A stretch of 64,000 bases of DNA. Origin: a phage. A program made the position numbers and the translations under genes. Positions 18,037 to 57,034 of the stretch are shown in pieces; the first letter of the stretch is position 1, and each line of letters opens with the position of its first letter. Below the pieces are notes generated by a model that was not told the DNA's origin, did no database searches, and saw nothing but the letters and a program-made list of their open reading frames with translations. The stretch lies in NCBI GenBank assembly GCA_024975835.1, contig GCA_024975835.1_4840.1; one strand, written 5' to 3'.

Positions 18037-18618
18037 TTATAGACCAAATTTGCTACGCCACTTTTCAACCTTGTGTTCAATAGCGTGCTCCACTTTAATG
18101 CGAGTGGCCATCAAAGAGGATCCATGGATCGCCCCTTCCCCACACCCCATGCGCGCAACATGCTTGATTAGGTCATTGACGAGTTGATCCAATCTGTCTT
18201 GACTGCGATAAGGCTGGTTGCACAACCGGATAATCCGGCCATGATAATGATGGATAAGATTCAGATGCTTTTGAGGATCACGATCAATCAGACGGAACCA
18301 GTCTTCTTCCAACAGATTAGAAGAAATATCGTTCACTGTCGCCATGTGGTTGATGACAGAGTCGATCATTTCGGCCTTGTTCATAGAGCCGCGCATTTGG
18401 ACGTCGTCATAATCCATGACGTACAGAAGGTCAATAGCAGAGATAATGACATCAGCAACTTCGCCATTCAACGGCTCAGAAGATACTATGCCATGAAACA
18501 CATCAGACAGTTCACAGATCTCTTCACCTAGTTTGTTCAGAACAAACACAGGCGAGCGGTCTGGGGTATGAGCAGTGCAGTCATAAGAAGCGTCGACGAT
18601 AGTGTGTAGAAATTTCAT
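18037..18618 (-). CDS. hypothetical protein, possible all-alpha NTP pyrophosphohydrolase (MazG-like)
   Basis: NKLGEEICELSDVF...EVADVIISAIDLLY resembles the EExxE...D metal-binding helices of MazG/dCTPase-type enzymes; tentative. Confidence 0.4.
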   Translation of the reverse strand: MKFLHTIVDASYDCTAHTPDRSPVFVLNKLGEEICELSDVFHGIVSSEPLNGEVADVIISAIDLLYVMDYDDVQMRGSMNKAEMIDSVINHMATVNDISSNLLEEDWFRLIDRDPQKHLNLIHHYHGRIIRLCNQPYRSQDRLDQLVNDLIKHVARMGCGEGAIHGSSLMATRIKVEHAIEHKVEKWRSKFGL

Positions 18619-31024: not shown

Positions 31025-32263
31025 TCAGCGTTTCAAGAGTGTCATGAGGTTGACGCTATGTTTGCGCGGCTGCTTGTCCTCAACCTTGCGCACAGGCATC
31101 TTCAGGTTCGTACATACCTCGGATGGTTCCCAGCGCGTACCCTTTTGCAGGTGCCAGATGTGCAGAGGAACGCCAGTCTCAAAGAACACAGGCATCTTCC
31201 ACTTCTGGACGCCTGGAACGTGCCCTGCAGGAGCCTTTTCACACAACAGGGTATCTGGCAGCCAGAGCGAACGGGCTTCCCAGAGCGCTGCGCAGGAGTA
31301 TTCAGGCCAGACGCGTTCCATGTAGTCTATCTCATCCCAGGTACGCTCTGCGTCCCACCCGATGTAACGGGTATTCTTCAGTCGGAAGAACTTCTTCAGC
31401 CAGCATGCACCGGAGGTTTCAAAGTTCAGACGGTTGATGAACGTCAGGTGCCCGAACTCAGCCACACAATCCTGGAACGCCTGCTCAAGGTCGGCCTCAA
31501 GGATGTCACACTCTTCATCCGTGATAGGACAACCGTTGATCTTTTTCTTCCCGTGTTTAGTCACCCAATCGTCACGGTTGGACAAGAACGCCGCGCCATT
31601 ACGGTTGGACTCGCTTCCATCACGATCACGCAGCATGAAGCCAGGGACGTCAATGGTGTATTCGTTCCCGAAGACCATGTTCAGGGCTTCCAGGAAGTTC
31701 CAGGCGCTCAGGCGACCGAAGTATTTCCAGGACATCGCCGTGTCCCACAGCTGGGTGAATTGTTCTGTCTTATCGATGCACACCAACATCCCACGGAAAG
31801 CGTCATATTGAGTACGGCCAGCCAGCCAGTCAATATAGGACTGAACACACGGAATCATCTTGGACTTGCGGTAGCGACAGTCGGTATCGAATCGCATGCG
31901 TTCAAAGTTCAGGTTATACCAATCAGAGAAGCGCTGCATCTCTTCCTTAGACTGAGGCGGCACAGGGAACTCACTGTAGATTGTCCACGGTCCGACAGCG
32001 TTATAGCAACAACCCCACAGGAATGCCATCCAGATCTTGCGCTCGACTTTCTGTTCGAGGCTGATGCCTTCAGTGACTTCGATCGCATAGTCCATCAGAC
32101 GCATCTGCTGGTTGTGCTCTTCTGTGTAGGACAGCGCCTCCACCCAAGCCTTGAGCAGGTACATGCGATTCTCAGGCTTGCGATAATCAACAGCCAGGTC
32201 AATCGGGTACTTCCATTCAGCCGGAGGCGTATAGCCCGTCGGCATTTTAGATAAATGATGCAT
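31025..32263 (-). CDS. large hypothetical protein, candidate DNA base-modification enzyme
   Basis: 412 aa, Trp/Cys-rich; sits in the kinase-phosphatase-polymerase neighbourhood. Function assigned by context only. Confidence 0.55.
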   Translation of the reverse strand: MHHLSKMPTGYTPPAEWKYPIDLAVDYRKPENRMYLLKAWVEALSYTEEHNQQMRLMDYAIEVTEGISLEQKVERKIWMAFLWGCCYNAVGPWTIYSEFPVPPQSKEEMQRFSDWYNLNFERMRFDTDCRYRKSKMIPCVQSYIDWLAGRTQYDAFRGMLVCIDKTEQFTQLWDTAMSWKYFGRLSAWNFLEALNMVFGNEYTIDVPGFMLRDRDGSESNRNGAAFLSNRDDWVTKHGKKKINGCPITDEECDILEADLEQAFQDCVAEFGHLTFINRLNFETSGACWLKKFFRLKNTRYIGWDAERTWDEIDYMERVWPEYSCAALWEARSLWLPDTLLCEKAPAGHVPGVQKWKMPVFFETGVPLHIWHLQKGTRWEPSEVCTNLKMPVRKVEDKQPRKHSVNLMTLLKR

Positions 32264-32603
32264 CTTTCGCTTCCTCTTCAGGAGCCAACTGAATGTCTTC
32301 TGGTTTCACAAACCCCATCGGACGTTCCCACATATCGATGAAGCGGCGGTCGGCGGTCACAAACCAAAGACGGGCTGCAGTGTGGGTCTTACCCGAGATG
32401 AACATCTGGGCATTCGTCTGGGTACGGAACGGAGCCGCCTGCAACCACTTACCGAAGTCTTTGGACGACGGATTGGCATTCAACTGGAACTGAGGGATGA
32501 CGCAGTTCTTTTCAGGAATCAGGCGCACGGCAGTAATGTGCTTGGCGTTTCCGGTGTAGTCGATCGCAACAGCCACAGCATCGCGAGGGATTTGAATTTT
32601 CAT
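32247..32603 (-). CDS. hypothetical protein
   Basis: 118-aa ORF. Confidence 0.45.
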   Translation of the reverse strand: MKIQIPRDAVAVAIDYTGNAKHITAVRLIPEKNCVIPQFQLNANPSSKDFGKWLQAAPFRTQTNAQMFISGKTHTAARLWFVTADRRFIDMWERPMGFVKPEDIQLAPEEEAKDASFI

Positions 32604-32803
32604 TTTGGTTCCTTGAATATTTTATAGCCAGCAGCGCCGATAGCCATAATCGCGCCGATACAATACAACATGGTCAGGTTCATCTTTTCTGAGGTTGTTA
32701 AGTCCAGAGGGGTGAAATGATAGGCTAGGGCAGTACACATTGAAACGGCTGCCATAACCAGACCAATGAACAACAGATAATTAGACAACCGTTTCATGAT
32801 CAC
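32600..32803 (-). CDS. hypothetical small membrane protein
   Basis: 67 aa, two hydrophobic helices. Confidence 0.4.
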   Translation of the reverse strand: MIMKRLSNYLLFIGLVMAAVSMCTALAYHFTPLDLTTSEKMNLTMLYCIGAIMAIGAAGYKIFKEPK

Positions 32804-33717
32804 CCCTTCTTCATCAGGTCAAGGAGAGAGCGCGACGCTGCCTTCGTTGCTTCTGGCTGGGCGCTCGCCTTGGTTTTAGTTTTGGATGCCTTCTGCGGCT
32901 TCTCAGGGACTCTGTGCGCCAAAGGATCCTGGCCGCCGATTTCACGAGTCATCGGATTGGTTTCACAGTAGGCGTAGAAGTCTTTGGTGTCCATGTTAAC
33001 TTCACGCAGTTCGGACCGTATCTGATGACAAATCGCATTACCCACAACCCACAGCGGGGCGTCGAACGGTAGTACCGCCAACTCGGACTGCTGTTTGGTC
33101 GTGAACTCCTGGGTGTTGGCGTCCGGTGATTTATACAGGATATCCTGTCCGCTGTAATCATCAACAGCCACAGTGAAGCCCAGCGCCAGCATTTCGGCCT
33201 TCGACTTCTCAAACTCCTTGTAGTAAGATTCGTTGCGCGACCAGCCGGAGTTCCCTGCTTCTTTACCAGATCGACCACGGATACGAGCATCGTACTGATA
33301 GCGGTCGGGGTACGCAAAGTACAGCAGCGCCAATGATTCAATCGGATAGTTCTTGAACATCCATTCAGGACGCCATTTGTCCGATAGCATGAGGGGTTCA
33401 CCCTCGCACACCAGAGTGTATCCCTGAACCAACCAGCACTTGATTAGATCACGAGCAATATCGCCTGAGCCTGTAGCAGCATGGATTGCATCCATTGAAG
33501 TCCAGGAAGCCAGGCCGGATTTGTTAGACACGGTGTACTGTCCAACGAAGATTAACTTCAGCTCTCCGAACTTCAAGCCAAACGGGCGAGTCTTGTCACC
33601 AACGGTGTAGGTCAGTTCGGTAGGCTCCAGCTTAGTGCGCAGCCATTCGATGAACTGGACCACTCTCGTACCCTTGCCCGTGGCCGAGGTGCCTTTCACT
33701 ACGATAATTTTTGCCAT
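32800..33717 (-). CDS. P-loop kinase (polynucleotide-kinase-like; candidate 5-hmdU DNA kinase)
   Basis: Walker A VVKGTSATGKGT at N-terminus; Lys/Thr/Ala-rich basic C-terminal tail. Confidence 0.6.
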   Translation of the reverse strand: MAKIIVVKGTSATGKGTRVVQFIEWLRTKLEPTELTYTVGDKTRPFGLKFGELKLIFVGQYTVSNKSGLASWTSMDAIHAATGSGDIARDLIKCWLVQGYTLVCEGEPLMLSDKWRPEWMFKNYPIESLALLYFAYPDRYQYDARIRGRSGKEAGNSGWSRNESYYKEFEKSKAEMLALGFTVAVDDYSGQDILYKSPDANTQEFTTKQQSELAVLPFDAPLWVVGNAICHQIRSELREVNMDTKDFYAYCETNPMTREIGGQDPLAHRVPEKPQKASKTKTKASAQPEATKAASRSLLDLMKKG

Positions 33718-34022
33718 TACACAGCATCCTCAATACGCCAGCTCACGCCGCCCAGCCAAGGTGCCCAGAACACAGCAACCTGTGGGCGGCCATTCTCTTC
33801 AAACTTCACTTTATACTGGTCGTCGAAGTTATAGAAGATTTCATCCGCTTCAGAGCGCTGGCCGATCTTCACCAGTACATCATGAAGAGCCTTGGCTGCA
33901 CCGATAGGAGTCGGAGTCTCCTGCTGACGAATGAAGTTGTTCACATGGTTAATCACGCCATCCATGTCGCTATCACCGAAACGCTCGTCGGGGATTTCCC
34001 CGAACTTGGATTGTTCTTGCAC
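33717..34022 (-). CDS. hypothetical protein
   Basis: 101-aa ORF. Confidence 0.45.
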   Translation of the reverse strand: MQEQSKFGEIPDERFGDSDMDGVINHVNNFIRQQETPTPIGAAKALHDVLVKIGQRSEADEIFYNFDDQYKVKFEENGRPQVAVFWAPWLGGVSWRIEDAV

Positions 34023-34031
34023 GATGTCCTC

Positions 34032-34811
34032 CTATCGGACGTATTGATAATGACTAATCAGGCGGTTCACCACTTCGACAATATTGCGGTTCAGGAAGTC
34101 GAAGTGATTCTGGCCTTCTACTGGTTTAATATAAAGCATGTCTTCCGAATTCGAAAGATCCAGTTTTTCATAATTGCCCTGAGGAACAAAGATGACAAAG
34201 ATGTTGTTCAGGCCACACGGCTCGACATACTTCGGATTGTCATCAATCAGGACATCGCCAGCCAGCAGATGCTTTTCGTCGGTGCTGACAAACCCGTTGA
34301 AGATACCAGGGAACTTGTCATAGACAAACTGACGCTTGCTGCGCTCGTGTTCCGGCTCGCACTTCGACACCGCGATGAATTCCACATTGTCGAAATCTTC
34401 AAGCAAGATATCCTTCAGATTTACCAGGAACTCGTAAGCGCCGGGGAGCGGGTTCATCTTGGCGTACAGGTCAGGGCGACGCCACCAATCCATAGGATCG
34501 TTACCGCTTGGCACACGTTGTTTGTGCATCCCCAATTGGACTTCATGGTATAGCCACGCCGGATGCGCACGTTCACGCATCAGAATAGCCAGGTCGCCAG
34601 CATGGGACATATAACACTCTTTGGTGATCGGCTGGAACTGGTATGACTTATGTTCCCCCGTAGCGATAGCAGCGGCGGCGATGTTCTCTTCGTTGAACCA
34701 CTGCACCCAAGGGGAGAGGCTGTCGACCAACGTCAGGTCAACATCCACGAGGACGCGATACAGGCCACCGACCTTTGATTTCATATCATAGATACAAACC
34801 AGGTTGTTCAT
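34032..34811 (-). CDS. HAD-superfamily phosphatase (putative nucleotidase)
   Basis: DxDxT motif I (LVDVDLTLVDS) near N-terminus. Confidence 0.55.
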   Translation of the reverse strand: MNNLVCIYDMKSKVGGLYRVLVDVDLTLVDSLSPWVQWFNEENIAAAAIATGEHKSYQFQPITKECYMSHAGDLAILMRERAHPAWLYHEVQLGMHKQRVPSGNDPMDWWRRPDLYAKMNPLPGAYEFLVNLKDILLEDFDNVEFIAVSKCEPEHERSKRQFVYDKFPGIFNGFVSTDEKHLLAGDVLIDDNPKYVEPCGLNNIFVIFVPQGNYEKLDLSNSEDMLYIKPVEGQNHFDFLNRNIVEVVNRLISHYQYVR

Positions 34812-35158
34812 TTGTCTTCCTCAACTTTATCGTAGCCTGTAGCAACACACTGTTCTTCGGTACAATCTGCATACAGAACGACGGAGGCCTGCTTCACGTA
34901 GGTGATGCAGTGGTAAGTTTCGTCTTCCTGGATGGAATCGTCATAGTTGCAGACAGTTTGGAGCGGACCCGGAGTAGTGTTGTCCAGTGCTGCATGTGCC
35001 TTAATGGTGTCTTCCATCTTGGACACGGCCTGCTCATTGGTGAACGTCGGCGCGTCAAGGTCTACAGTAGACGCAACGTCCAGAAGGGTGGAACACGCAG
35101 TGGTAGAGAAAGCCAGAGCACACACCAGAAGAATCTTATTGAGTTTCATTTCAATCAC
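34808..35158 (-). CDS. secreted or lipoprotein-like small protein
   Basis: 116 aa; N-terminal signal peptide with Cys near predicted cleavage site (LVCALAFSTTAC); acidic mature part. Confidence 0.5.
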   Translation of the reverse strand: MIEMKLNKILLVCALAFSTTACSTLLDVASTVDLDAPTFTNEQAVSKMEDTIKAHAALDNTTPGPLQTVCNYDDSIQEDETYHCITYVKQASVVLYADCTEEQCVATGYDKVEEDK

Positions 35159-35179
35159 CTGTTTGTCAAAGGGTTAACA

Positions 35180-35197
35180 GGGGGAATTATATCCCCC
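35180..35197. other. GC-rich hairpin between polymerase gene and downstream gene
   Basis: GGGGGAATTATATCCCCC; T-tract only on the plus side. Confidence 0.4.
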
Positions 35198-35211
35198 TTT
35201 GGTTTATTGAA

Positions 35212-38211
35212 TCAACCTTTCTTCTTTTGCATCATGGCAAGAAGGTTCACACGGCGCTTGTGTGACCAGCCGACCACGTCGAGGATAGACTGAATCGGAT
35301 CAATGAAGGACTTCTCAAAGGCCGCCTGATAATCCACCCATTTGCCCAGACCAAGCTCCTCAGGGAAGAACTCAGGATATGCGAAGTAATTCTGGCCGAA
35401 TGGGTTGCCTGGCTTCAACAACACCATCTGTACCTTATCACCCGACTCGATCATCGGCAGGCCGAGATCTTCGTTCTTCTCAACCAGACGGTTGTAACCC
35501 ACACAAGCCTTTGCAGCAAAATGAGCACCAGAGATGAACGATCCGTCAGCAGCCACACACTTCTCTATGTCGGACACGCCTGACGCCTTGGCGATATCGT
35601 CTACAGAGAGTTTCATGTACTCCTCTTTGTACTGGGAGATGAGCGCCTGTACTTCCTCTTCGGTGCCGAGTAGGATCTTCTCATAGCACTTGACAAGGCG
35701 CTCACGACACCATTCCGGCGTGGTGGACTTGCGGGCTTCCAGACCTTTGAACTTGATCTTCGGCTTCTCGTACTTGATACCCTCACTGTCGTACACGGCC
35801 ATGGCATACATCTTCTTGGCTCGCCAGACAGCGGCTGACGCAATGACCTCACGCTCCCACACCATGCGCTGTTCAAATCCGTTCATGGTGTTACATAGAA
35901 GCTGTGCCCACTCATTGGTCTTCGGCTGGTAGTTGTCTTTGATCCATTGGTCGATATTATCAACCATAGCATGATGGTCAGTAACATCAGGCCACAACTG
36001 CTTGACAAGACGCTCAATGCAGATGTAGTTGGAGTCGGTATCCCCTGCGATGACGAAGTCCTGACCTGTTGTACCACACAGCTTGTTCAGATAGTCATCA
36101 GTGTAACGCTTGTTCCACTTGTTGATCAGCTGACCGGATGTGGTGATGGCTTCGGCAATGTTGAGGTTGAAGTACTCTTTGAACCAGACGTTTGAGATCG
36201 CGCCATAACCTGCGTTCATCAAGATCTTCAGACCTTGCTGAAGGGTATCTTGAGCAACGCCCAGATCTTCCCACTTCTTCATCACTTCGGTCAGTGCATC
36301 AAGATCAACGTTCTTGTGCTCTTCATACCACTCTGGGTCATAGTAGCGAGACTTCATGGCAGACTCAAGATGGAAGTCGCCCTTCGACATCTCTTTACAC
36401 CAGCCAGCCCACTGCTCATACTTCAGACCCTTGGCCTTCTCTACTTTACGGTCGCTGTAGATACCACGCATGATTTCAGACAGGAACGACATCTTCTCGT
36501 TGCTGAAGAACTGAACGTTCGGCGTGAAGGACACGTTGTAGAGGCGCAGGGTTTCAAAGTGGAACTCACCCAGGGCAACCAACTCATCAACAACCTGCAG
36601 GCGTTCGTCAACCGCACGCAACAGCTTGTCGTGAAGGGCTTTCATCAACCGACGTTTGTGCATCGGCGTTGCCATGTTATTCATCTGAGCAGCCAGCTCT
36701 TCACACATAGCCTCAATAATCTCGCGGCGCTGGTGTTTGTCGCCAACGATAGTCTCTGGACCGAGGTTGTACTGCTGAATGATGTGAGGATACAGGGAGT
36801 TCAAATCTTCCGAGAAGACCCAGAAGTAGATTCCTGGTGTCACATCCATGACGTATGCACCCTCAAAGTCGGTCGGACCATCGTATACACGCTGGATCTT
36901 AGGCACTATCCCCTTCTCGTACAGGCGATAGTAGCACATGGCCAGCCACGGAGCCACAGTGCCCAGACCGTCTTCATAGTTGGACTTGGTGCGGTAGGCC
37001 AGGACGAACATCAGCTGGAGCAGGCGCAGCTTCTGTTCAAGTCGCCATACCAGCTTAACGTCTTTGATACCATATCGGGTGTGTTTGCAGTAGTCGTTGA
37101 AGTACAGATCAAAGAGCGACTTGCTCTCACTGTAGTCCATCTTCTTCTCACCCAGCTCACAATACGCAATCCAGTCAAGAGAGTAGCGTTCACGGGTGGT
37201 GTACGTGTGTTTCTTGTAGATCTGCATATAATCGAGCATAGGGCAACCCACGAACTGATACGTCGTGATATCGCCCTTCTTATCGCGAATGATACGCTTC
37301 TTAATGATACCCCAAGGACTGAGGCGCGACGTTTCAGCCTCTCCCAGAACCTGATTCATGCGCTCAACAAGATAAGGGCTATCAAACGTCTCAATGTTCC
37401 AGCCAGTCCATCCGTCGAACTGACGCTCCGACCAGAAGTCCAGGAAAGAGCGCAGCAGGTCTTGTTCGGTGGTGAACTCCTGATAAACAACCTCCAGGCC
37501 GCCGATCTCTTTGTCTTCTGCGTCATAGGTGAATTTGTTACGATCTTTGGCGCACGGCATACCCCAGACCATGAACTTGTTGGTCGCCATATCCTGAAGC
37601 TGGATCAGGGTAATGGGGAACGCCGCATTCATGTCTTGGGTGATCTTGCCGTTGCTGTCAATGATAGGGAACTGATCAGTGACGTTGTTGCTGATGAAAG
37701 AACCAGGGAAGTGCTCACGGACAAAATCATGGTTGGCCAGCACTTGTTTATGGAAGCGGCGAATGCGCGCCTCATTCCCTTTGAACGTCTGCTGCTCAAT
37801 GGTTGGGTGAGGGAATGGACCTTTGGTCATCTTTCCGTCTTTCCACCCGGCGGAGAACACTTCGATATCGAGGTTAGCAATATGGATGTTGGAATAATCC
37901 GGCTCAATCTTTCCAGGAAAGCTATGGGCGATGAACTGGTATGCATAATCGGTCTGCCCGTAAATGGCAGCACCCTGGACTTCCTTGTACTCTTCAAGAT
38001 AGTTGTCAGCGTCACGCATGGAAGGGAACTGCTTGGCTACCAGGGGTTCATTGAGAAGGCCAACCTTTTCAACATTTGAATAGTCAGCCGTGGGTAAATA
38101 GAGAGTGGGTTCGAATTTCTTTTTCAACAGACGGCGATTACCCATGTCATCTGCAATTCGAATCAACAGGTCATTGCCCCTGCGGGCAACGTTCGTATAG
38201 AAAACGGTCAT
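35212..38211 (-). CDS. family-B DNA polymerase (T4 gp43-like)
   Basis: N-terminal FPSMRDA, Exo I NLDIEV, WTGWNIETFDSPYL, and polymerase motif C IAGDTDS; 999 aa, uninterrupted. Confidence 0.9.
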   Translation of the reverse strand: MTVFYTNVARRGNDLLIRIADDMGNRRLLKKKFEPTLYLPTADYSNVEKVGLLNEPLVAKQFPSMRDADNYLEEYKEVQGAAIYGQTDYAYQFIAHSFPGKIEPDYSNIHIANLDIEVFSAGWKDGKMTKGPFPHPTIEQQTFKGNEARIRRFHKQVLANHDFVREHFPGSFISNNVTDQFPIIDSNGKITQDMNAAFPITLIQLQDMATNKFMVWGMPCAKDRNKFTYDAEDKEIGGLEVVYQEFTTEQDLLRSFLDFWSERQFDGWTGWNIETFDSPYLVERMNQVLGEAETSRLSPWGIIKKRIIRDKKGDITTYQFVGCPMLDYMQIYKKHTYTTRERYSLDWIAYCELGEKKMDYSESKSLFDLYFNDYCKHTRYGIKDVKLVWRLEQKLRLLQLMFVLAYRTKSNYEDGLGTVAPWLAMCYYRLYEKGIVPKIQRVYDGPTDFEGAYVMDVTPGIYFWVFSEDLNSLYPHIIQQYNLGPETIVGDKHQRREIIEAMCEELAAQMNNMATPMHKRRLMKALHDKLLRAVDERLQVVDELVALGEFHFETLRLYNVSFTPNVQFFSNEKMSFLSEIMRGIYSDRKVEKAKGLKYEQWAGWCKEMSKGDFHLESAMKSRYYDPEWYEEHKNVDLDALTEVMKKWEDLGVAQDTLQQGLKILMNAGYGAISNVWFKEYFNLNIAEAITTSGQLINKWNKRYTDDYLNKLCGTTGQDFVIAGDTDSNYICIERLVKQLWPDVTDHHAMVDNIDQWIKDNYQPKTNEWAQLLCNTMNGFEQRMVWEREVIASAAVWRAKKMYAMAVYDSEGIKYEKPKIKFKGLEARKSTTPEWCRERLVKCYEKILLGTEEEVQALISQYKEEYMKLSVDDIAKASGVSDIEKCVAADGSFISGAHFAAKACVGYNRLVEKNEDLGLPMIESGDKVQMVLLKPGNPFGQNYFAYPEFFPEELGLGKWVDYQAAFEKSFIDPIQSILDVVGWSHKRRVNLLAMMQKKKG

Positions 38212-38290
38212 GTAATTCTCCAGGTTATCCGTGCCGTTAGCACGTGGGCATATTTAACCATAGAGCCATTCATTGACCAAGGAGTTTAAT

Positions 38291-38863
38291 ATGGCAATCC
38301 CCCTCGTTGGTATGATCCCAGGGGCGCTCAAGCAACTCTGGAACCTCGGGACTGATTTGATCCAATATAAGCGGGAAGTTGTACAGGCCAAACACGACGT
38401 CAAGCTGGAGGCCATCAAGTCCTCCTCAGATTGGGAGCTGTCTAAGATCACCGAAGTCGGCGGATCTTGGAAAGATGAATTCTGGACTATCGTGTTGGCC
38501 ATACCCGCCATCCTCGTCATGACTGCTCCGGTTGTGGAACTGATTCTGTTCCCTGGTGAGTATCATAAAGGGGATTTCATCAAAGCAGTAATCGGTGGCC
38601 TTCAGGCACTAGATACCGCACCTGAATGGTATACCTATTCGTTATTGACAGCAATTAGTGCATCATTCGGTATCAAAGGCTACAACCACTACAAAAGCAA
38701 CAGGCGAAAAGCCCAAGCTATGGATGCTCTCAAGCAATTTGGGGTTCGGGTCGTACAGAAAGATCCCACTGTTGTTACTCAGTCGGGTGCTCCCGATCTT
38801 GAGTCTGCTCCCCCAGCTGGGTCTACTGCGACCTCTGGTGCGTGGCCTGATCTGAAGAAATAA
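38291..38863 (+). CDS. hypothetical integral membrane protein
   Basis: Start at MAIPLVG preceded by AAGGAG; about three hydrophobic helices. Confidence 0.5.
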   Translation: MAIPLVGMIPGALKQLWNLGTDLIQYKREVVQAKHDVKLEAIKSSSDWELSKITEVGGSWKDEFWTIVLAIPAILVMTAPVVELILFPGEYHKGDFIKAVIGGLQALDTAPEWYTYSLLTAISASFGIKGYNHYKSNRRKAQAMDALKQFGVRVVQKDPTVVTQSGAPDLESAPPAGSTATSGAWPDLKK

Positions 38864-38869
38864 GTTCAA

Positions 38870-38894
38870 GGGGAGGAAACTCCCCTTTCTTTTG
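38870..38894 (+). terminator. intrinsic terminator
   Basis: GGGGAG-GAAA-CTCCCC hairpin followed by TTTCTTTT. Confidence 0.7.
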
Positions 38895-38905
38895 GTGTTT
38901 AGGGA

Positions 38906-39118
38906 ATGAATGTGGTAAACAAGAGATTGCTCGTCACCCAAGGCGGGGCGACGATAGTGCGCGGAAGGATCTATGAACAAACACAGCTGGGTGATCACAA
39001 GACGCGCCTGACTGTTAAGGCTCCAGATGGTGGTTGGCCGACAAAGGTAATTGTCCCTGACGGTCTCATAGAACGAGGGTCGGCGGTGTATAAAGGAGCA
39101 GAGTTCAAAATTTATTAA
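38906..39118 (+). CDS. hypothetical protein
   Basis: 70-aa ORF. Confidence 0.4.
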   Translation: MNVVNKRLLVTQGGATIVRGRIYEQTQLGDHKTRLTVKAPDGGWPTKVIVPDGLIERGSAVYKGAEFKIY

Positions 39119-39136
39119 AATATTTATTGAATAAAG

Positions 39137-39164
39137 TTTACTTCTTCAATAACTGGCGTATACT
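39137..39164 (+). promoter_or_regulatory. sigma70-like promoter candidate
   Basis: TTTACT, 16-nt spacer, TATACT; about 50 nt upstream of the 39214 start. Confidence 0.3.
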
Positions 39165-39213
39165 TCTAATTGTAGTACGAACAAACAACAATCTGAAGAG
39201 AAGGAAATACATC

Positions 39214-39771
39214 ATGGCAATCGAAATTATCGCTCAATCCAAATCTGGTAAAACTGTAATGTACGGCACTGAAGAAGGCCGCGCAATCACCACTCTGGGC
39301 ACAATTGACGGTTCCAACCCAGTGAAAGGCGGTCGCTACCTGGTTGAATACGGTTCACACCTGCTGATGGTAAGCAAAGTCGATGGTCGTGAAATCATGA
39401 TTCCCCGCAAAGAGTACTTCGACTCGCGCATTGAAGCCATGAACTTCTTCCTTTTCCAGGAACGTCACGAACTGTTCGTTGAAGCGAAAGACGCAGGCCT
39501 GGACGATGCGACTGCCGAACTGATTGCCGAAGGTAAAATGTCCCTCGAAGAAGCTCTGGGTGACATGGATTGCGATGCTGAAGCCCATTACATCGAATAT
39601 TCCGCTTATCAGAATGAATGCGAAGACGATCCTGAAGATGACGGCTTCGACCCTGACCTTCACGGTGGCGAGGATGACAATACTCCTTCCCTGGAAGTGA
39701 TCATGGCAGGCGGCCAGGCCGCTTGGGAGTGGCAGAACGAAAAGAACGCCTGGCTGGATTCCCACCTTTAA
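39214..39771 (+). CDS. hypothetical highly acidic protein
   Basis: Start at MAIEII (GAAGGAAA upstream); C-terminal half very Asp/Glu-rich. Confidence 0.5.
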   Translation: MAIEIIAQSKSGKTVMYGTEEGRAITTLGTIDGSNPVKGGRYLVEYGSHLLMVSKVDGREIMIPRKEYFDSRIEAMNFFLFQERHELFVEAKDAGLDDATAELIAEGKMSLEEALGDMDCDAEAHYIEYSAYQNECEDDPEDDGFDPDLHGGEDDNTPSLEVIMAGGQAAWEWQNEKNAWLDSHL

Positions 39772-39789
39772 TGTGAAGAAATAAAGAAA

Positions 39790-39812
39790 GGGGCTTAACG
39801 CCCCTTTTCTTA
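39790..39812. terminator. bidirectional intrinsic terminator
   Basis: GGGGC-TTAAC-GCCCC hairpin between convergent genes, A-run before and T-run after. Confidence 0.65.
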
Positions 39813-40268
39813 TTCTTCCCAGAAGTCTTCGTCGTCCCCGACAGCAGCCAGTTCCGTGTCCAGTTCTTCATCGGTAAACGGTGGCAGCACCCCGTTCTGA
39901 ATCAGATAATCCATCTCATCATCTTCCAGCTGCAGGTCGGTGGCAATATACAGCGCTCCGCTGCCCTCTTCGTCCGTCTCGATACTGTACGAAGTGTATG
40001 GCACCCCATTCACTGTAATGATGATAGACGTTGGATCCTTGGGATCTACGTGCGCCTCGAACGGCACGCCATCAATCGGTGCGTCTTCCAGGAAGGTGGC
40101 AAGTGCTACGGCGGCGCGGACAACATCAGTGCCTTCAACGCCTGCATAGATCTCTTCCGCGCCTGTCTCTTCACGATCAAACAGCTCAATCGTGATACCG
40201 TCTTGAACACCAGTCCATACAGGGATGTCATTAGTGTATTCTGATTCAAACAATTTGGAGGTTGGCAT
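39810..40268 (-). CDS. hypothetical highly acidic protein
   Basis: 152 aa, Asp/Glu-rich throughout. Confidence 0.45.
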   Translation of the reverse strand: MPTSKLFESEYTNDIPVWTGVQDGITIELFDREETGAEEIYAGVEGTDVVRAAVALATFLEDAPIDGVPFEAHVDPKDPTSIIITVNGVPYTSYSIETDEEGSGALYIATDLQLEDDEMDYLIQNGVLPPFTDEELDTELAAVGDDEDFWEE

Positions 40269-40300
40269 GTTAGGTTCCTCAGTGGGTTAGCCATATGGGG

Positions 40301-40307
40301 TATTTAG
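40301..40307 (-). promoter_or_regulatory. late-promoter-like CTAAATA motif
   Basis: Minus-strand CCTAAATACCCCATATGG 33 nt upstream of the ATG at 40268. Confidence 0.35.
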
Positions 40308-40399
40308 GCTTCCCGCTTGGCGATGCCTGGTTTGTACAGGACGCCTCTCGGAATATTGGAGGAAGGTTTTCATAGATACCCCACACTGGTTGTATGGGG

Positions 40400-40406
40400 T
40401 ATTTAG
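40400..40406 (-). promoter_or_regulatory. second copy of CTAAATACCCC motif
   Basis: Direct repeat of the element at 40301, about 100 nt further upstream. Confidence 0.3.
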
Positions 40407-40412
40407 GATGGA

Positions 40413-41606
40413 TCAGGAAGGGGTGAAGTCGTTCACAGGAACTGTTTCAGGGATAGCCAGCTCAGGGCATGCTGCCTTCATTGGCTCAATGTACGGCTTA
40501 CTACCCACAATCCAGAACAGAGTGTTCTCATTGAGCAACTCTGGCTTGTTCTGCTGGATCCAGGTCATGACCTTGCCTTCATAGCGAGGATGCAACTCAA
40601 TATCGCCCCACTGATATTCCATCAGGTCATTATAACGAACCCAATTAGTGGTATGAAGATCCCAATGGTGTACCTCAAAGCGAGGAAGCACGACCTCTGG
40701 CTCTTCCTTCTGCCTGATACCACTTAGGAGGCCAGCCAGCGAAACGCTCTTAGAGGCATGCTGAAGCTCCTTCTTGCCGTGTACATAGTCTGGGTTGTCG
40801 TGATAGCGACGGGTAAAGTCGACAATGTGCGGCAGATTGGCATGTTTGCCGATGATGCGCAGGCGGCTCTCGATAAAGTCAAGGCGGTTAGGACCGATGC
40901 CGATTAGATACACACGCTTCAGATTAGGCTTCGGATGCATTGCCAGCCCGGTCAGGATGCTTGTGCAAGAGTTGCACGATCCGGCTGGGATGATCAGGTC
41001 AGTAATGTGATCAGGAATGTTGGCAACCTGCTCGCCACCCAACATATGGAACCCAGCAATGCGCTCAGGGGAGTGGGCTGTATGGTCGAGGGTGATACCA
41101 TACTCCAGATAATACGCCTTTGGATTCTGTTGTTCGATCAACTTCTTACAGCGCGGCTGGATGGTGCTGTTGTAACCCGAGCCGACGAAGTTGAACTCAC
41201 TACCAAACCAGGCTGACATTGCCACCATTTCATGGTTCATACAGGTGGTGGGTTTGGTCGCGCCGAGCACAGTAGTTGTCTTGCCGCCGAAGTGCCGAGA
41301 GACTGCTGTCGCCATAGGGGACTGCGGACTACCAACGACAGTACCATGGATGATGTCAGGGGAGCCTCCGGCCTTGAGGTGCTCAACCATCAACCAGATG
41401 GCCTGGCGGAGTTTGCTGCCATTGATGCCCTGCTTGGCGTTGGCATAGTTAGACAGCGGCGCAAAATAATCTTCACGCTTGAACCAGACCTGCTGGTTGG
41501 TTTCGGGATTGACGACAAGTTCGCACGGGGTGTGCTTGTAGAGATAGTCTTCCCAGTGAACCAGATTGCGGTCGAGGGAAAGGGTATCGAAAATGGTCTT
41601 GTTCAT
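40413..41606 (-). CDS. PLP-dependent enzyme (fold type II, ACC-deaminase / Trp-synthase-beta-like)
   Basis: NGSKLRQ lysine motif and Gly-rich loops typical of fold-type-II PLP enzymes; start at MNKTIFD with AGGAG upstream. Confidence 0.6.
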   Translation of the reverse strand: MNKTIFDTLSLDRNLVHWEDYLYKHTPCELVVNPETNQQVWFKREDYFAPLSNYANAKQGINGSKLRQAIWLMVEHLKAGGSPDIIHGTVVGSPQSPMATAVSRHFGGKTTTVLGATKPTTCMNHEMVAMSAWFGSEFNFVGSGYNSTIQPRCKKLIEQQNPKAYYLEYGITLDHTAHSPERIAGFHMLGGEQVANIPDHITDLIIPAGSCNSCTSILTGLAMHPKPNLKRVYLIGIGPNRLDFIESRLRIIGKHANLPHIVDFTRRYHDNPDYVHGKKELQHASKSVSLAGLLSGIRQKEEPEVVLPRFEVHHWDLHTTNWVRYNDLMEYQWGDIELHPRYEGKVMTWIQQNKPELLNENTLFWIVGSKPYIEPMKAACPELAIPETVPVNDFTPS

Positions 41607-41676
41607 TCTATTTTCTCCTGTAGACATTGGTTTATCATAGTGTATCTACAGGAGTATAGAAAAGGAGAATCTCGGC

Positions 41677-42336
41677 TTATTTCTTGAATAAACGAAGGAA
41701 CTTCATCATGTTTTCCATGAAAGTCGGCTTCTTGACCTTTTGTTTTACCGGAGCGCCCTGATCATTCAGAACACGACTGGCCGGAGGAGTAGGTGGTGTC
41801 GGTGCTTTCGTTTCACAGGCCGGAACGATGTTCACGTCATGATGAGAAGACTCAGCTGTAGTGTTAACAACATTGTTCTCCTGGACGACAGGCTTAACGA
41901 GATTCTTTTCATACTCGCGAGCAATCGCCTGGTACTTCCGATTCTCCGCGTCAAAGTCCATAGAAACGACTTTACGACGGCGGCGCGTCGCGCTCTCATC
42001 ACCATAGAAATCGTATCCGTTCTTGACCAGCCAGTGTACAGCTTGGACAAATGAATGGAAGATCATGAACGGCTGGCCATTACCCTCTTCAGCAGCGGTG
42101 ATGCCGGAGTAGCCCATGAGCACAACCTGACCCTTTACGTCGAGGTCAAAAGATGTACATTCACCGTGCTGGTTCAGATCACGCGGAGCCAGCTGGGAAT
42201 CACGATGGATATAATTCGGCGACAAAAACTCATTCAGAGTTCGTTTGTTGCCTTTGTATTCAAACAGGCGAATACAGATGGGAGTCGTCAGTTCATGCCA
42301 TTCGGCATCGTTGACCCAGATAGAAACATTACGCAT
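41677..42336 (-). CDS. hypothetical protein
   Basis: 219-aa ORF; Pro/Thr-rich basic C-terminal tail. Confidence 0.45.
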   Translation of the reverse strand: MRNVSIWVNDAEWHELTTPICIRLFEYKGNKRTLNEFLSPNYIHRDSQLAPRDLNQHGECTSFDLDVKGQVVLMGYSGITAAEEGNGQPFMIFHSFVQAVHWLVKNGYDFYGDESATRRRRKVVSMDFDAENRKYQAIAREYEKNLVKPVVQENNVVNTTAESSHHDVNIVPACETKAPTPPTPPASRVLNDQGAPVKQKVKKPTFMENMMKFLRLFKK

Positions 42337-42428
42337 CGGTGTATCCTCAAATCAATGGATAGGGGTTTAACGGTTAAATTTTAAACCATTCTATCTCATT
42401 GAACAAATACAGAATGGGAAGGATGGAC

Positions 42429-42456
42429 AAAAGAAAGCCGGATAAGGATATCCGGC
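42429..42456 (-). terminator. intrinsic terminator downstream of tRNA cluster
   Basis: GCCGGATA-AGG-TATCCGGC hairpin followed on the minus strand by TTTCTTTT. Confidence 0.6.
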
Positions 42457-42675
42457 TATACCACATCGATGGGATGGGTTGAAAAGACTACACGCTTGCA
42501 CTGGTACTGCCTTATGGGAGAGCGCGTCAGGAGTCGAACCTGAAGTCGTCGACGTAGAGAAAGCTATTTGCATTTCACTATCCTCGCCGCGATTTTCTTA
42601 ACTTCCTAAACACCCCGATTACGAGAGAGTCGACATGCACATCTTCTAACTCTTCAGGAAGTCACGCCCGTAATT

Positions 42676-42764
42676 TGGCGGAAGGTGAAGGATTCGAACC
42701 TTCGGGGGCTAAAAGCCCCACTCGATTAGCAATCGAGTCCCTTAAACCTCTCGGGCAACCTTCC
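42676..42764 (-). tRNA. tRNA-Ser (anticodon GCT)
   Basis: Folded by hand: 7-bp acceptor GGAAGGT/ACCTTCC, anticodon stem CTCGA/TCGAG with loop TTGCTAA, long variable arm, T-loop GGTTCGAATCC, encoded CCA. Confidence 0.8.
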
Positions 42765-42984
42765 AATTTGGACGGGCTTCGCACCCGATTGAGCATTTGA
42801 TCTACCGTAGCCCAACTCCCCGCGCTTCTCAGCGCCGATTGGTTAACTGGCGACCAGTGCCTTCTGGTTCGATCTCCTGGAACTTTACAGGCTTTGCGCC
42901 AGACCATTTCTGGAAGTTGGGGCATCGTTTCCGATGTGGAGTCACCCCATTTTATACACAGCTGGCTGCAACGCTTACTGTGTT

Positions 42985-43068
42985 TGGTGTGAGTGGATGG
43001 ATTCGAACCACCGCGCTGTTACGGGGAGATTTACAGTCTCCTGCATTCGACCGCTCTGCCACACTCAC
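42985..43068 (-). tRNA. tRNA-Tyr (anticodon GTA)
   Basis: Acceptor GTGAGTG/CACTCAC, anticodon loop CTGTAAA, long variable arm, T-loop TTCGAAT, encoded CCA. Confidence 0.8.
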
Positions 43069-43325
43069 ATTTGGTCTGCCGCTGCGTGCTGGGCCACGCT
43101 CGAGGACATCGGCCATCCTTCCTCAGCTAATCCACGCAGCGGTAGATTTGTATCAGAGTGTCCGGTGTAGCAACCCGTGAGGTGCGCACTACTGTAGCCT
43201 CTACACTCTGAATTTGGTGGGTGTTACTATCGTCGTCTTCGGATTCCGTTCGGCTATTGGACAGAGGCTTGGAGCTTGTCGGTCGCGTACTTTATGCCTA
43301 TTCACTTTCGTTCACACCCATTGTC

Positions 43326-43401
43326 TGGCGACGATGGCAGGACTTGAACCTGCGACATATGGATTAACAGTCCACCGTTCTACCGACTGAACTACATCGT
43401 C
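43326..43401 (-). tRNA. tRNA-Asn (anticodon GTT)
   Basis: 76 nt; acceptor GACGATG/CATCGTC, D-stem GTTC/GAAC, anticodon loop CTGTTAA, T-arm GCAGGTTCAAGTCCTGC, encoded CCA. Confidence 0.85.
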
Positions 43402-43562
43402 TTGCAAATCACTATACCATATAAAGTTTATTGAACAAACATTTATTTTACAACAAACTGTATTGGCGGGGTCTGAGGCTTTTCACCTCACCTGCTGGGT
43501 TTGGCCGCCCAGCCGTTCTCTATGAGGATTCACTGTCCGGACAGCTATCCATTAAACTATCG

Positions 43563-43639
43563 CCCCTCAATATGGTGATCCTGATTGGGTTTGAACCAAT
43601 GACCAATGAATTATGAGTTCACTGCTCTAACCGACTGAG
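43563..43639 (-). tRNA. tRNA-Met (anticodon CAT; Met or Ile2 not distinguishable)
   Basis: 77 nt; acceptor GGTCCTG/CAGGATC, D-arm GCTCAGTCGGTTAGAGC, anticodon loop CTCATAA, T-loop GGTTCAAACCC, encoded CCA. Confidence 0.8.
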
Positions 43640-45033
43640 CTACAGGACCAAATTATTGTGTGACCAACCAAGGACTGTCAACCCTTTATCCCGTTTGTGC
43701 ATGATCAGTTCATACAGGCCTCTTTGTGCTGCCTCACGGCATGCGCTTCTGTTGGTCATTGGCTTACACTGTGGCCTCACAACAGGCGTTTATTTTTCCA
43801 GGGCTTTCCACTTACAAGTCTTAACCAGACCGGGATACGGGCTTGTAAGATCGGGTTGGACACAACTTTGAGGACACTGACGACGTATACGAGTCACCCA
43901 TAACAGATATTCGGATGCCAGTGTCCTCAAAGTTGCAACCAATGTCGCAACTCGCAGCTTCCATACAGAAGCAACTTGTCCTCTAACGCTCGGACCAAAC
44001 GAGGCTGGCTGGTTGATTCAGAGCCGCTGGTTGCTCCAGCAAGCATGGGTTGATAGCCCGGCAACATAGAATCACCCAAAGATGAAGAACATTCATGACT
44101 CACATCACACCACGAATGGCCTGAAAGAGAATCGAACTCTTTAAATGCTCTTCATTTTGTGAACTTGAGAATACTACGCCTGTCTCGGGTTTCCCCTTAG
44201 TTCGGCCTCCCAGTCCTCGCCGCGCCGGGTAGCTAACCCTGATGGCTCGTCTGCTACTGAGTTCTTCTTGGTGCCCACCAGTGTCCGGAATGTGTAGGCA
44301 TCGCAATCTGCAAGGCATGGTCTATTTCACCCAATGCTCTCTCAAGTTCACAAATCGAAGTGCCCTGACTCAACAGTATGGCCCAATATGCTGTTATCGT
44401 CCACCGGATTGGCCGCCCAATTTGTAGATCAACCTTTGGGTTTAAGATAAATTGTCAAGGCACTTCGATTTGTGTGCCCTTCACCTGCCAGGGATCAGGG
44501 CTGATGGCAAGACTTCGCTCACATCTTTCAAGATACTCGTGAGAATATCCTCAAAGATGTGGAGCCGTTTTAGGGAGTCGAACCCAAATGCTTGGCCAGC
44601 GCTGACCTTACATCCCATCTGACTTAGGCAACCCACCTCTGCTTACTCAGGAGCTTATCCCCTTTGGACAGTCAGATATAACGGCATTGTCGACGGGAGC
44701 TTATTAATCACACCCTCCCGTCTATTTTAGTGCGCCGAATTTGGTGATGAGGAATCGGAAGACCTCACTGACTTATAGGCTGTTACGCCGCCATCAGAAC
44801 TTCGGAATCATTAGCAGTTATTTGCTTGGTCAGTTTCTAAAAACCCGCAAAGTCACTCACAACGAAAACGAAAACCTGTTTGAGCACAAGACGCCATGTC
44901 CTGGGTTCACATCGAAGTGTTTGTCTAATGCCCAAACAGCTTTTCGTTCAGTGGGTTAACTATACTTTGTAACCCGTTATTGACAAAACCTTAAATTAAG
45001 TTGCGGTGTACTCAAGACCACCGCACTATTAAT

Positions 45034-45998: not shown

Positions 45999-46568
45999 TT
46001 ATTTTAACACTTCTAACTTCACAATACGACGCAGAAGGTAAACATATTCGCCAGCAGCTTCATGCGTCATATAATGGGTAGAAGGTGTGGAATGAGTGTT
46101 CTGGGTTTCTTTTAATCCAACGCGTTCAGCCCAACCATTAATAGAGTTCCCATAGAAACCGATAATCGCGCCAAAATAAATACGCCCGCTTTCTGGCTCT
46201 AAAACGTAGTTGACAGTGAAGCAAATGTCAGAACGAATAGACTCCAGTTTCATACCAACACGACCTTCAGAGAATTCGTTACGAACATATAAATGACGGA
46301 AGCGATCGCGCCGTGCTTGTGATGATTCTTCCAATTCTTGTCGAAGTGAAGAAGTTATGTCAATATTAAATGAAAATGTTGGATTTCGTAAATCAGAACG
46401 GGCCAACTCTAACGCAGATTCAATAACGCGACGGAAATTGATACTTTTACCTGTCAGGCGTTTCACTTCATCGGTGATTTTTTCAAAAGGGATTTTCGTG
46501 GCGCGTTCCCCTTCGTATTTTGCTAACAAAGGAACAATGTGTTTCATGATTGCTGTGTTAATGTGCAT
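45999..46568 (-). CDS. hypothetical protein
   Basis: 189-aa ORF flanked by AT-rich intergenic DNA. Confidence 0.45.
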   Translation of the reverse strand: MHINTAIMKHIVPLLAKYEGERATKIPFEKITDEVKRLTGKSINFRRVIESALELARSDLRNPTFSFNIDITSSLRQELEESSQARRDRFRHLYVRNEFSEGRVGMKLESIRSDICFTVNYVLEPESGRIYFGAIIGFYGNSINGWAERVGLKETQNTHSTPSTHYMTHEAAGEYVYLLRRIVKLEVLK

Positions 46569-46886
46569 TCCGGAGCCTCACTGGATTGATTAAATGTCTC
46601 CGTTATTATATTGGGAGTATGTTTATTGAATATAAACACAGGAATGACCAATAAAATAATGACAGTGATTATTAATAGGTAAAAACTACTTTTCTACAAC
46701 ATCAAGAAACTGTATCCTAACGCAGTGCCCTTCGAGTTGTGAGTGTTAACGAACAACGAGAAGCAGCCTCCATGGCTGTGGAATGGTGCTGCCCGCATAG
46801 GGCGGTGTTACGAGCGAGGGCGTTAGCCCCCTCGCGAGTTATATTCGAATAAATTAAACGCGCGCGAGCGTTTTGATTCCCGTTGG

Positions 46887-50751: not shown

Positions 50752-50758
50752 CTAAATA
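50752..50758 (+). promoter_or_regulatory. late-promoter-like CTAAATA motif
   Basis: ACTAAATACCCC 38 nt upstream of the ATG at 50796. Confidence 0.4.
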
Positions 50759-50795
50759 CCCCTAGATGAAACGAACACATTTAGGGGTATTTGAA

Positions 50796-54310: not shown

Positions 54311-54374
54311 TTTGTTCATAAATTTATTAGTTCAGACTAAATACCCTATATTGGCAAATCCTTTATGGGGTATT
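54311..54374 (+). repeat. 64-bp direct repeat, copy 1 (promoter/leader cassette)
   Basis: Identical except one base to 56971..57034; contains CTAAATACCC and the RBS/start context of tailspike 2. Confidence 0.7.
54337..54343 (+). promoter_or_regulatory. late-promoter-like CTAAATA motif
   Basis: 35 nt upstream of the ATG at 54378. Confidence 0.4.
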
Positions 54375-56970: not shown

Positions 56971-57034
56971 TTTGTTCATAAATTTATTAGTTCAGACTAA
57001 ATACCCCATATTGGCAAATCCTTTATGGGGTATT
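56971..57034 (+). repeat. 64-bp direct repeat, copy 2 (promoter/leader cassette)
   Basis: 63 of 64 identical to 54311..54374. Confidence 0.7.
56997..57003 (+). promoter_or_regulatory. late-promoter-like CTAAATA motif
   Basis: 37 nt upstream of the ATG at 57040. Confidence 0.4.

Follow-up and report, generated by a model that had tools for sequence, protein, structure and literature searches.

What is a PLP-dependent enzyme doing in a phage genome: does it serve amino-acid metabolism, or does it tailor the DNA of the phage itself? The question is raised by one ORF in a 64,000-nt stretch of phage DNA (the window; contig GCA_024975835.1_4840.1). A preliminary description, made from the letters alone, had placed a protein of about 400 aa at 40413-41606, had seen in it a lysine motif like that of ACC deaminase and tryptophan synthase beta, and had proposed tailoring in DNA modification rather than amino-acid metabolism. 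That proposal is now supported by 92% identity to gp226 of phage ViI and by pathway partners found in the window. Very probably, the gene product catalyses the final step of thymidine hypermodification to 5-NeOmdU in an Ackermannviridae phage. That a protein so close to gp226 would have the same activity is suggested by its orthology, its syntenic position, its fold and conserved residues, and the genes around it; the gene is thus a published and already known enzyme, found again.

The gene and its relationship to ViI gp226

The coordinates of the ORF proved exact (397 aa), and its strand, which had not been given, is minus (Table 1). A GGAG Shine-Dalgarno sequence lies 8 nt 5' of the ATG at 41606. 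An alternative in-frame ATG at 41627 would add seven residues (404 aa), and the start at 41606 is favoured because over this ATG and 70 nt of sequence 5' of it, ViI, fGh-Ecl02 and Klebsiella phage May are near-identical to the window.

The product was 92% identical to ViI gp226 (YP_004327553; Vi01_182/orf00226 in the ViI record) over 394/397 aa without gaps. Both genes have the same start codon and upstream element, the same neighbours, the same lysine and the same pathway partners. On the other hand, ViI gp226 has a 27-aa insertion directly after Met-Asn which the window protein lacks, and because of this insertion ViI K92 corresponds to K65 here; moreover, the DUF3990-like gene that adjoins ViI gp226 is deleted in the window.

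ViI gp226 (YP_004327553) is listed as 'PLP-dependent decarboxylase' in Table 1 of Lee et al. (PMC8989533), and the purified protein is a PLP-dependent decarboxylase which converts O-serinyl-thymidine (O-SerT) in DNA to 5-(2-aminoethoxy)methyl-dU (5-NeOmdU) (PMC8989533, PMC5889632; Lee et al. 2018 PNAS, 2021/22 NAR). Several published observations bear on this activity: i) the purified protein is yellow and absorbs at 410-425 nm (PMC8989533); ii) O-SerT DNA treated with it yields a 301 u nucleoside (PMC8989533); iii) exactly one carbon is lost from 13C/15N-labelled O-SerT (PMC8989533); iv) lysate mixes without gp226 accumulate a +44 u intermediate (PMC8989533); v) five ViI proteins, gp226 among them, reconstitute 5-NeOmdU on 5-hmdU DNA (PMC5889632). 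Furthermore, 5-NeOmdU has been verified by LC-MS in a separate Ackermannviridae phage with the same gene set (2026 preprint, bioRxiv 10.64898/2026.05.19.726188). The ViI ortholog has thus been shown to bind PLP and to decarboxylate O-SerT DNA, and by analogy the window protein would do both.

Table 1. Features of the PLP-gene locus and of the pathway partners in the window
Feature	Coordinates	Strand	Remarks
PLP-dependent O-serinyl-thymidine decarboxylase gene (ViI gp226 ortholog; function predicted from sequence)	40413..41606	minus	ORF, 397 aa (MNKTIF...)
K65 codon, predicted Schiff-base (internal aldimine) lysine, equivalent to ViI gp226 K92	41412..41414	minus	motif GINGS-K65-LRQ
G209-S216 (AGSCNSCTS), predicted PLP phosphate-binding loop	40959..40982	minus	conservation; aligned with DcyD 'SGSAGTHAG'
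Y342-E343-G344-K345 motif	40572..40583	minus	equivalent to YEGK of ACC deaminase and YTGK of D-cysteine desulfhydrase
gp224 homolog, function not assigned	41677..42336	minus	49% identity to ViI Vi01_181; no Pfam match
gp227 (Vi01_184) homolog, function not assigned	39810..40268	minus	62% identity; no Pfam match
DNA polymerase, between PLP gene and other hypermodification genes	35212..38211	minus	86% identity to ViI polA
5-hmdU DNA kinase 2, ViI gp243 ortholog	32800..33717	minus	84% identity; PF18747 (HMUD2) E=8e-158
Amino-acid:DNA transferase, ViI gp247 ortholog (serine:DNA transferase)	31025..32263	minus	89% identity; PF18724 (ADDT) E=5e-60
CTAAATACCCC copy 1	40396..40406	minus	6 nt past PLP stop codon; in ViI precedes DUF3990-like Vi01_183
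CTAAATACCCC copy 2	40297..40307	minus	28 nt before ATG of gp227 homolog
Remnant of Vi01_183 homolog (DUF3990-like), 28 codons, frameshifted	40287..40373	minus	~395 bp missing relative to ViI and fGh-Ecl02 (three-way alignment)
Conserved intergenic element with hairpin (41606-41661)	41606..41676	minus	hairpin 3' arm holds the PLP-gene GGAG
TTCAAT-N14-TAAAAT promoter-like motif, 5' of gp224 and PLP gene	42378..42403	minus	1 mismatch to TTCAAT[N14]TATAAT
Terminator-like hairpin and T-run, between tRNA-Ser and gp224	42436..42457	minus	
tRNA cluster (Met, Asn, Tyr, Ser in transcription order)	42676..43649	minus	ARAGORN; upstream of the gp224-PLP unit
Sigma-70-like site before tRNA-Met	43652-43681		

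The phage and the spread of the gene

By megablast the region matched Ackermannviridae, the nearest records being Enterobacter phage fGh-Ecl02, Salmonella phage vB_CECAV_050 and Escherichia phages RPN242, A221 and AV101, with Shigella phage Ag3 next in rank; judged by this nucleotide similarity, the window phage is Agtrevirus-like. When the PLP protein was used as a tblastn query, 348 phage records matched (344 of them at full length), most from Ackermannviridae and spanning Kuttervirus, Agtrevirus, Limestonevirus and Taipeivirus as well as Erwinia, Serratia and Vibrio members. The gene, first taken as unusual in a lytic phage, is therefore no oddity. Its homologs mostly bear the GenBank names 'hypothetical protein', 'threonine ammonia lyase' or even 'DNA repair protein'.

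Active site and fold

Placing the window protein in fold type II took profiles and a structure model, since single-sequence phmmer against the PDB returned 0 matches, as did an NCBIfam search. The profile-HMM assignment that had been suggested as a check gave PHROG 3650 ('unknown function'; E=1e-238) and, for residues 26-249, Pfam PF00291 (PALP; E=2.4e-7), whose 30.9 bits are slightly below the gathering score of 35; precomputed PF00291 matches are carried by several homologs.

The proposed lysine motif was confirmed. K65, equivalent to the residue that Lee et al. proposed as the internal-aldimine lysine of ViI gp226 (K92; PMC8989533), was invariant in 35/35 aligned homologs and at 80/80 IMG/VR loci, and N62, G63 and R67 were likewise invariant in the 35-sequence alignment, where identity falls to 41%. 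A profile search of PDB sequences aligned K65 with K51 of ACC deaminase in GGN-K51-xRKLE (E=4e-6). Comparison by hhalign with E. coli D-cysteine desulfhydrase (DcyD; probability 83%, E=9e-6, 22% identity) again matched K65 to K51, and it paired AGSCNS (208-213) with SGSAGT and HPRYEGK with DPVYTGK of DcyD.

Fold-type-II enzymes generally have the Schiff-base lysine near the N-terminus and the phosphate-binding loop nearer the C-terminus (PMC6411801), and the same layout was found here, K65 being N-terminal and AGSCNS further C-terminal. From this layout, AGSCNSCTS is predicted to be the phosphate-binding loop; within it, G209 and N212 are invariant while S210, S213 and S216 are near-invariant in the 35-sequence alignment.

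Y342-E343-G344-K345 was conserved at 78-79 of 79 loci and aligned with 'DPVYTGKAM' of DcyD and 'DPVYEGKSM' of ACC deaminase. At the pyridine nitrogen ACC deaminase is an exception among fold-type-II enzymes, as it places there Glu295, within its YEGK motif. The gp226 family appears to hold an invariant Glu (E343) at this very position, where a carboxylate would strengthen the electron sink for decarboxylation. The residue opposite the pyridine nitrogen in fold-type-II enzymes is normally Ser, Thr or Cys (PMC6411801).

In the AlphaFold2 model built from the 35-sequence alignment (pLDDT 89.7, pTM 0.89; disordered stretch 277-302), the window protein is a two-domain alpha/beta enzyme of fold type II, tryptophan-synthase-beta type. 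Foldseek against the PDB gave 333 matches at E<=0.001, and the 50 listed were PLP enzymes with this fold, except the uncharacterised 9jqf. The best was D-cysteine desulfhydrase 4d8t (E=1e-11), then came the ACC deaminases 1tzk, 1j0a and 1f2d (E=1e-11 to 1e-9 for this subfamily; target-normalised TM-score 0.56-0.70 for the top matches), and next serine dehydratase, O-acetylserine sulfhydrylase and tryptophan synthase beta, at identities of 12-17% throughout. With ACC deaminase and D-cysteine desulfhydrase the window protein has in common the G-N/S-K-x-R lysine motif, the phosphate-loop region and the Y-E/T-G-K motif. It differs from them in sequence (~15% identity), in a variable, low-confidence insertion of ~48 residues (262-309), and in its predicted chemistry, which, going by the ViI ortholog, would be decarboxylation on a polymeric DNA substrate instead of ring opening or beta-elimination (PMC8989533).

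A second known relative is gp52 of Pseudomonas phage M6 (YP_001294560), which also decarboxylates a DNA-tethered amino acid, C-alpha-glycinyl-thymidine, in the 5-NedU pathway (PMC8989533). Its FKRED..APL...SK(L/I)R block aligns with the window protein and K36 falls on K65, at an hhalign homology that is marginal against a single-sequence template (probability 38%, E=3e-4, 22% identity). M6 gp52 is shorter (278 aa vs 397 aa), and it acts on the product of a radical-SAM isomerase, an enzyme which Ackermannviridae lack (PMC8989533). A related PLP enzyme was also looked for in the 2026 dapT paper, and none is involved there.

Synteny and pathway partners

The gene order is that of ViI: tRNA cluster, gp224, gp226, gp227, DNA polymerase, 5-hmdU DNA kinase 2 and serine:DNA transferase. 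The last of these, of the gp247 type, makes the substrate of the PLP enzyme (PMC8989533). A short opposite-strand block lies between the gp227 homolog and the polymerase gene. The dUMP hydroxymethylase, the gp67 kinase, a clade-1 aGPT-Pplase and the radical-SAM isomerase were sought in the 64-kb window and none was found; for the first two this says nothing about the genome, because synteny with ViI puts both ~11-12 kb beyond window position 1. The window by itself therefore attests only a part of the pathway.

In Ackermannviridae the PLP gene and the amino-acid:DNA transferase (AADT) gene are ~8 kb apart with the polymerase gene in between. Among 58 IMG/VR viral loci, namely those whose PLP protein is <60% identical to that of the window, a gp247-like AADT gene lay within 1.3 kb of the PLP gene at 51 (the BLAST hits being separated by a median of 147 bp), and at 50 of the 51 both genes share a strand; two of the seven remaining loci are contigs which end at the PLP gene. 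This adjacency in distant loci is an independent association, and it supports a DNA-tailoring role family-wide. At some of the IMG/VR loci thyA-like and kinase genes are also present.

Proposed reaction and alternative explanations

In ViI the pathway has four steps (PMC8989533, PMC5889632): i) 5-hydroxymethyl-dU is incorporated into phage DNA; ii) 5-hmdU DNA kinase phosphorylates 5-hmdU within the polymer; iii) the amino-acid:DNA transferase adds serine via its side-chain oxygen, giving O-serinyl-thymidine; iv) the PLP enzyme decarboxylates the tethered serine to a 2-aminoethoxy group. In the window protein, PLP would be held by K65 as the internal aldimine, and the free alpha-amine of serine, O-linked to the thymine C5-methyl in DNA, would displace K65 by transaldimination. 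CO2 would then be lost, with PLP as the electron sink that stabilises the quinonoid, and E343 would probably assist by hydrogen-bonding or protonating the pyridine nitrogen (N1). Reprotonation of C-alpha would release 5-NeOmdU and re-form the K65 aldimine, and the modified base protects phage DNA against many restriction endonucleases. Decarboxylation is atypical of fold-type-II enzymes, and no solved structure of the family accounts for such chemistry.

Could the protein instead be a host-acquired enzyme of free amino-acid metabolism, that is, a threonine deaminase/ammonia-lyase, an ACC deaminase or a D-cysteine desulfhydrase? Database names of its homologs ('threonine ammonia lyase', 'threonine dehydratase', 'carboxylate deaminase') say so, and the closest solved folds, D-cysteine desulfhydrase and ACC deaminase, as well as the YEGK motif common with the latter, would fit. 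However, identity to such enzymes is ~15% structurally, too low for a host-derived metabolic ortholog; it reaches 22% in profile alignment, and with 0 matches in NCBIfam and in single-sequence phmmer against the PDB, the likeness to ACC deaminase and D-cysteine desulfhydrase is one of profile level only, not orthology. Moreover, the ortholog with 92% identity uses serine tethered to DNA as its substrate (PMC8989533), and the gene adjoins AADT genes family-wide. A metabolic role is thus extremely unlikely. The two findings that would have refuted the preliminary proposal, absence of the Schiff-base lysine and orthology to a host biosynthetic enzyme, were both looked for, and the lysine is invariant and such orthology absent.

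It is also quite improbable, if a little less so, that the enzyme tailors DNA with another tethered amino acid or by another PLP reaction, so that the final base is not 5-NeOmdU. Thymidine hypermodification genes do recombine combinatorially in viromes (PMC8989533), the window phage is far from ViI in other genes (rIIA 54%, MazG 51% identity), and ViI gp226 has 27 N-terminal aa that are missing here. Yet the amino acid is selected by the transferase, which shares 89% identity with the serine:DNA transferase of ViI, the PLP enzyme in turn sharing 92% with gp226, and a review calls the modification genes highly conserved across Ackermannviridae (PMC11721090). Decarboxylation of O-serinyl-thymidine to 5-NeOmdU is hence the reading we adopt for this gene.

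Downstream CTAAATACCCC elements

The preliminary description had two tandem elements preceding the gene and the tRNA cluster following it. This holds in plus-strand coordinates and is reversed in gene orientation, where the elements lie downstream and the tRNAs and gp224 upstream. Both CTAAATACCCC copies are exact, and the window has six matches in total at <=1 mismatch, versus 0.56 expected. In ViI each of the two elements precedes its own small gene, Vi01_183 or Vi01_184, the second copy (CTAAATATCCC) overlapping the Vi01_183 stop codon. The copies in the window are 99 nt apart and look tandem because a ~395-bp deletion removed the Vi01_183 homolog; tblastn with Vi01_183 across the window found nothing.

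Regulation of the PLP gene by the two elements, which their distance of <=120 nt from the ORF might suggest, has next to no probability: both copies are 3' of the PLP stop codon on the coding strand, each stands in ViI just upstream of its own next gene, the tandem look is a product of the deletion, and the other copies precede tail-spike/tail-fibre genes (at 50752, 54337 and 56997), as in ViI. Thus the CTAAATACCCC elements do not control the PLP gene.

CTAAATACCCC has been listed as a 'unique regulatory motif' (PMC7283392). Since the T4 late promoter is TATAAATA and ViI-like phages encode gp55 and gp33 homologs (Kutter et al. 2011), a late-promoter role is plausible for CTAAATACCCC, as its occurrence in front of tail-spike genes and its core, TAAATA, also suggest. 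CTAAATAcCcc is not defined as the late promoter by Kutter et al. (2011), who state that none had been identified for ViI-like phages.

Upstream region and a conserved element with a predicted hairpin

In transcription order the upstream region comprises the sigma-70-like site, the tRNA genes, the terminator-like hairpin, the TTCAAT-N14-TAAAAT motif, the gp224 homolog, a 70-nt spacer and the PLP gene; the tRNA-gp224-PLP arrangement recurs in fGh-Ecl02, phage May, phiEa2809 and Vibrio phage D503. A sigma-70-like promoter sought directly before the PLP gene gave no convincing match, the nearest promoter-like motif being that which precedes gp224, and the gp224 homolog immediately upstream is probably co-transcribed with the PLP gene. 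TTCAAT[N14]TATAAT has been named as a ViI-like motif (PMC7283392), and the window holds 17 matches to it at <=2 mismatches versus 5.2 expected.

The intergenic element between gp224 and the PLP gene is 94-96% identical to ViI at the nucleotide level, versus 61-83% for the flanking genes; it is near-invariant in 19 viral loci (blastn-short) and absent from Erwinia and Vibrio relatives. Its predicted hairpin folds as RNA at -20.8 kcal/mol (z=-4.4). A search for covariation in 19 related loci returned single-sided changes alone (G-U, A.C mismatch) and no compensatory pairs. In the predicted fold, both the Shine-Dalgarno sequence and the first letter of the AUG are hidden within the hairpin, which could act as a post-transcriptional or promoter-choice timer. 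In T4 there is a parallel in genes whose early read-through transcripts stay translationally silent. The joint reading, that the element gates expression of the decarboxylase and that, separately, the family is a fold-type-II scaffold decarboxylating on a DNA polymer, is tentative and on balance rather unlikely. If true, the timer would couple the last step of hypermodification to replication.

Significance

For enzymology, the gp226 family seems to represent a fold-type-II PLP scaffold without a solved structure, one that carries out decarboxylation on a DNA polymer. The value of the finding lies mainly in annotation, the correct name of the gene being O-serinyl-thymidine decarboxylase (5-NeOmdU pathway). 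From the PLP gene, the kinase and the transferase taken together, 5-NeOmdU is predicted in the phage DNA, and with it resistance to many restriction enzymes, which matters when Ackermannviridae phages are cloned, sequenced or used in therapy.

Spacer and candidate promoters around the PLP gene

The spacer between the gp224 homolog and the PLP gene (the ortholog of gp226 of Salmonella phage ViI) shared 94-96% nucleotide identity with ViI, as compared with 61-83% for the flanking genes, and was near-invariant across 19 viral loci. RNA folding predicted within it a 12+6-bp hairpin (41606-41661, minus strand; -20.8 kcal/mol, z=-4.4), which would bury both the GGAG Shine-Dalgarno (SD) sequence of the PLP gene and the A of its start codon (AUG). 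Compensatory changes in this hairpin were not seen among the 19 loci, and the spacer element was absent from the Erwinia and Vibrio relatives. It could act as a promoter, bind a protein or control translation.

The ViI-like motif TTCAAT-N14-TATAAT was enriched in the window, with 17 matches at ≤2 mismatches versus 5.2 expected, and its copies are probably early or middle promoters. The fourth tRNA was called tRNA-Met by ARAGORN, while the syntenic tRNA of the closest relative, Enterobacter phage fGh-Ecl02, is annotated as tRNA-Ile; with its CAT anticodon, the window tRNA could be a lysidine-modified Ile2-type tRNA.

Features located in the window, with strand and basis or position
Feature	Coordinates	Strand	Basis or position
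gp239 homolog	34032-34811	-	Pfam NT5C deoxy-pyrimidine 5'-nucleotidase match, E=1e-8
TTCAAT-N14-TATAAT, perfect copy	35186-35211	-	just downstream of DNA polymerase gene
Frameshifted 28-codon remnant of DUF3990-like gene	40287-40373	-	comparison with ViI and fGh-Ecl02
CTAAATACCC(C/T) with inverted GGGGTAT(T)	40396-40406	-	precedes deleted DUF3990 gene
gp224-PLP gene spacer, 70 nt	41606-41676	-	nucleotide identity to ViI and RNA fold
TTCAAT-N14-TATAAT, 1-mismatch copy	42378-42403	-	before gp224 homolog and PLP gene
Fourth tRNA, tRNA-Met (CAT)	43573-43649	-	ARAGORN
Strong sigma-70-like site TTGACA-18-AATAAT	43652-43681	-	11/12 matches, directly upstream of fourth tRNA
TTCAAT-N14-TATAAT, perfect copy	46605-46630	-	before ORF 45999-46568
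CTAAATACCC(C/T) with inverted GGGGTAT(T)	50752-50762	+	motif scan
CTAAATACCC(C/T) with inverted GGGGTAT(T)	54337-54347	+	motif scan
CTAAATACCC(C/T) with inverted GGGGTAT(T)	56997-57007	+	motif scan

A motif with an inverted repeat and a deleted gene

Of the five copies of CTAAATACCC(C/T) that were complete or nearly so, four were followed after 13-21 nt by an inverted GGGGTAT(T), just before an ATG. This layout preceded the deleted DUF3990 gene as well as genes for tail spikes or tail fibres, and the genes behind all four lacked a canonical SD; the copy at 40297 had a normal GAGGAA SD and no inverted repeat. The DUF3990-like gene (homologous to ViI Vi01_183), which fGh-Ecl02 retains, has lost about 395 bp in the window; thus the tandem look of the CTAAATACCCC elements, noted in the preliminary description, results from this deletion.

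The hypermodification genes

Among IMG/VR contigs outside the Ackermannviridae (L033-L088), the amino-acid:DNA transferase gene adjoined the PLP gene in 51 of 58 loci, on either its upstream or its downstream side and at a median of 147 bp; thyA-like, kinase and clade-1 aGPT-Pplase genes were also found on some of these contigs. Unlike this adjoining pair, the PLP and transferase genes of the Ackermannviridae form a split cluster, with the DNA polymerase gene between them. Between the polymerase and 5-hmdU kinase 2 genes lies the gp239 homolog, which, judging from its Pfam match, may help adjust the pool of pyrimidine nucleotides to thymidine replacement.

Identity to ViI varied by gene (23705-26461, 18040-18618 and 9127-9630 compared with 31025-41606): it was 54% for rIIA, 51% for MazG, 63% for dCMP deaminase, 49% for gp224 and 62% for gp227, and 84-92% for the hypermodification genes and the polymerase. 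As read from these identities, the modification module appears either to be under far stronger constraint than its neighbours or to have been exchanged.
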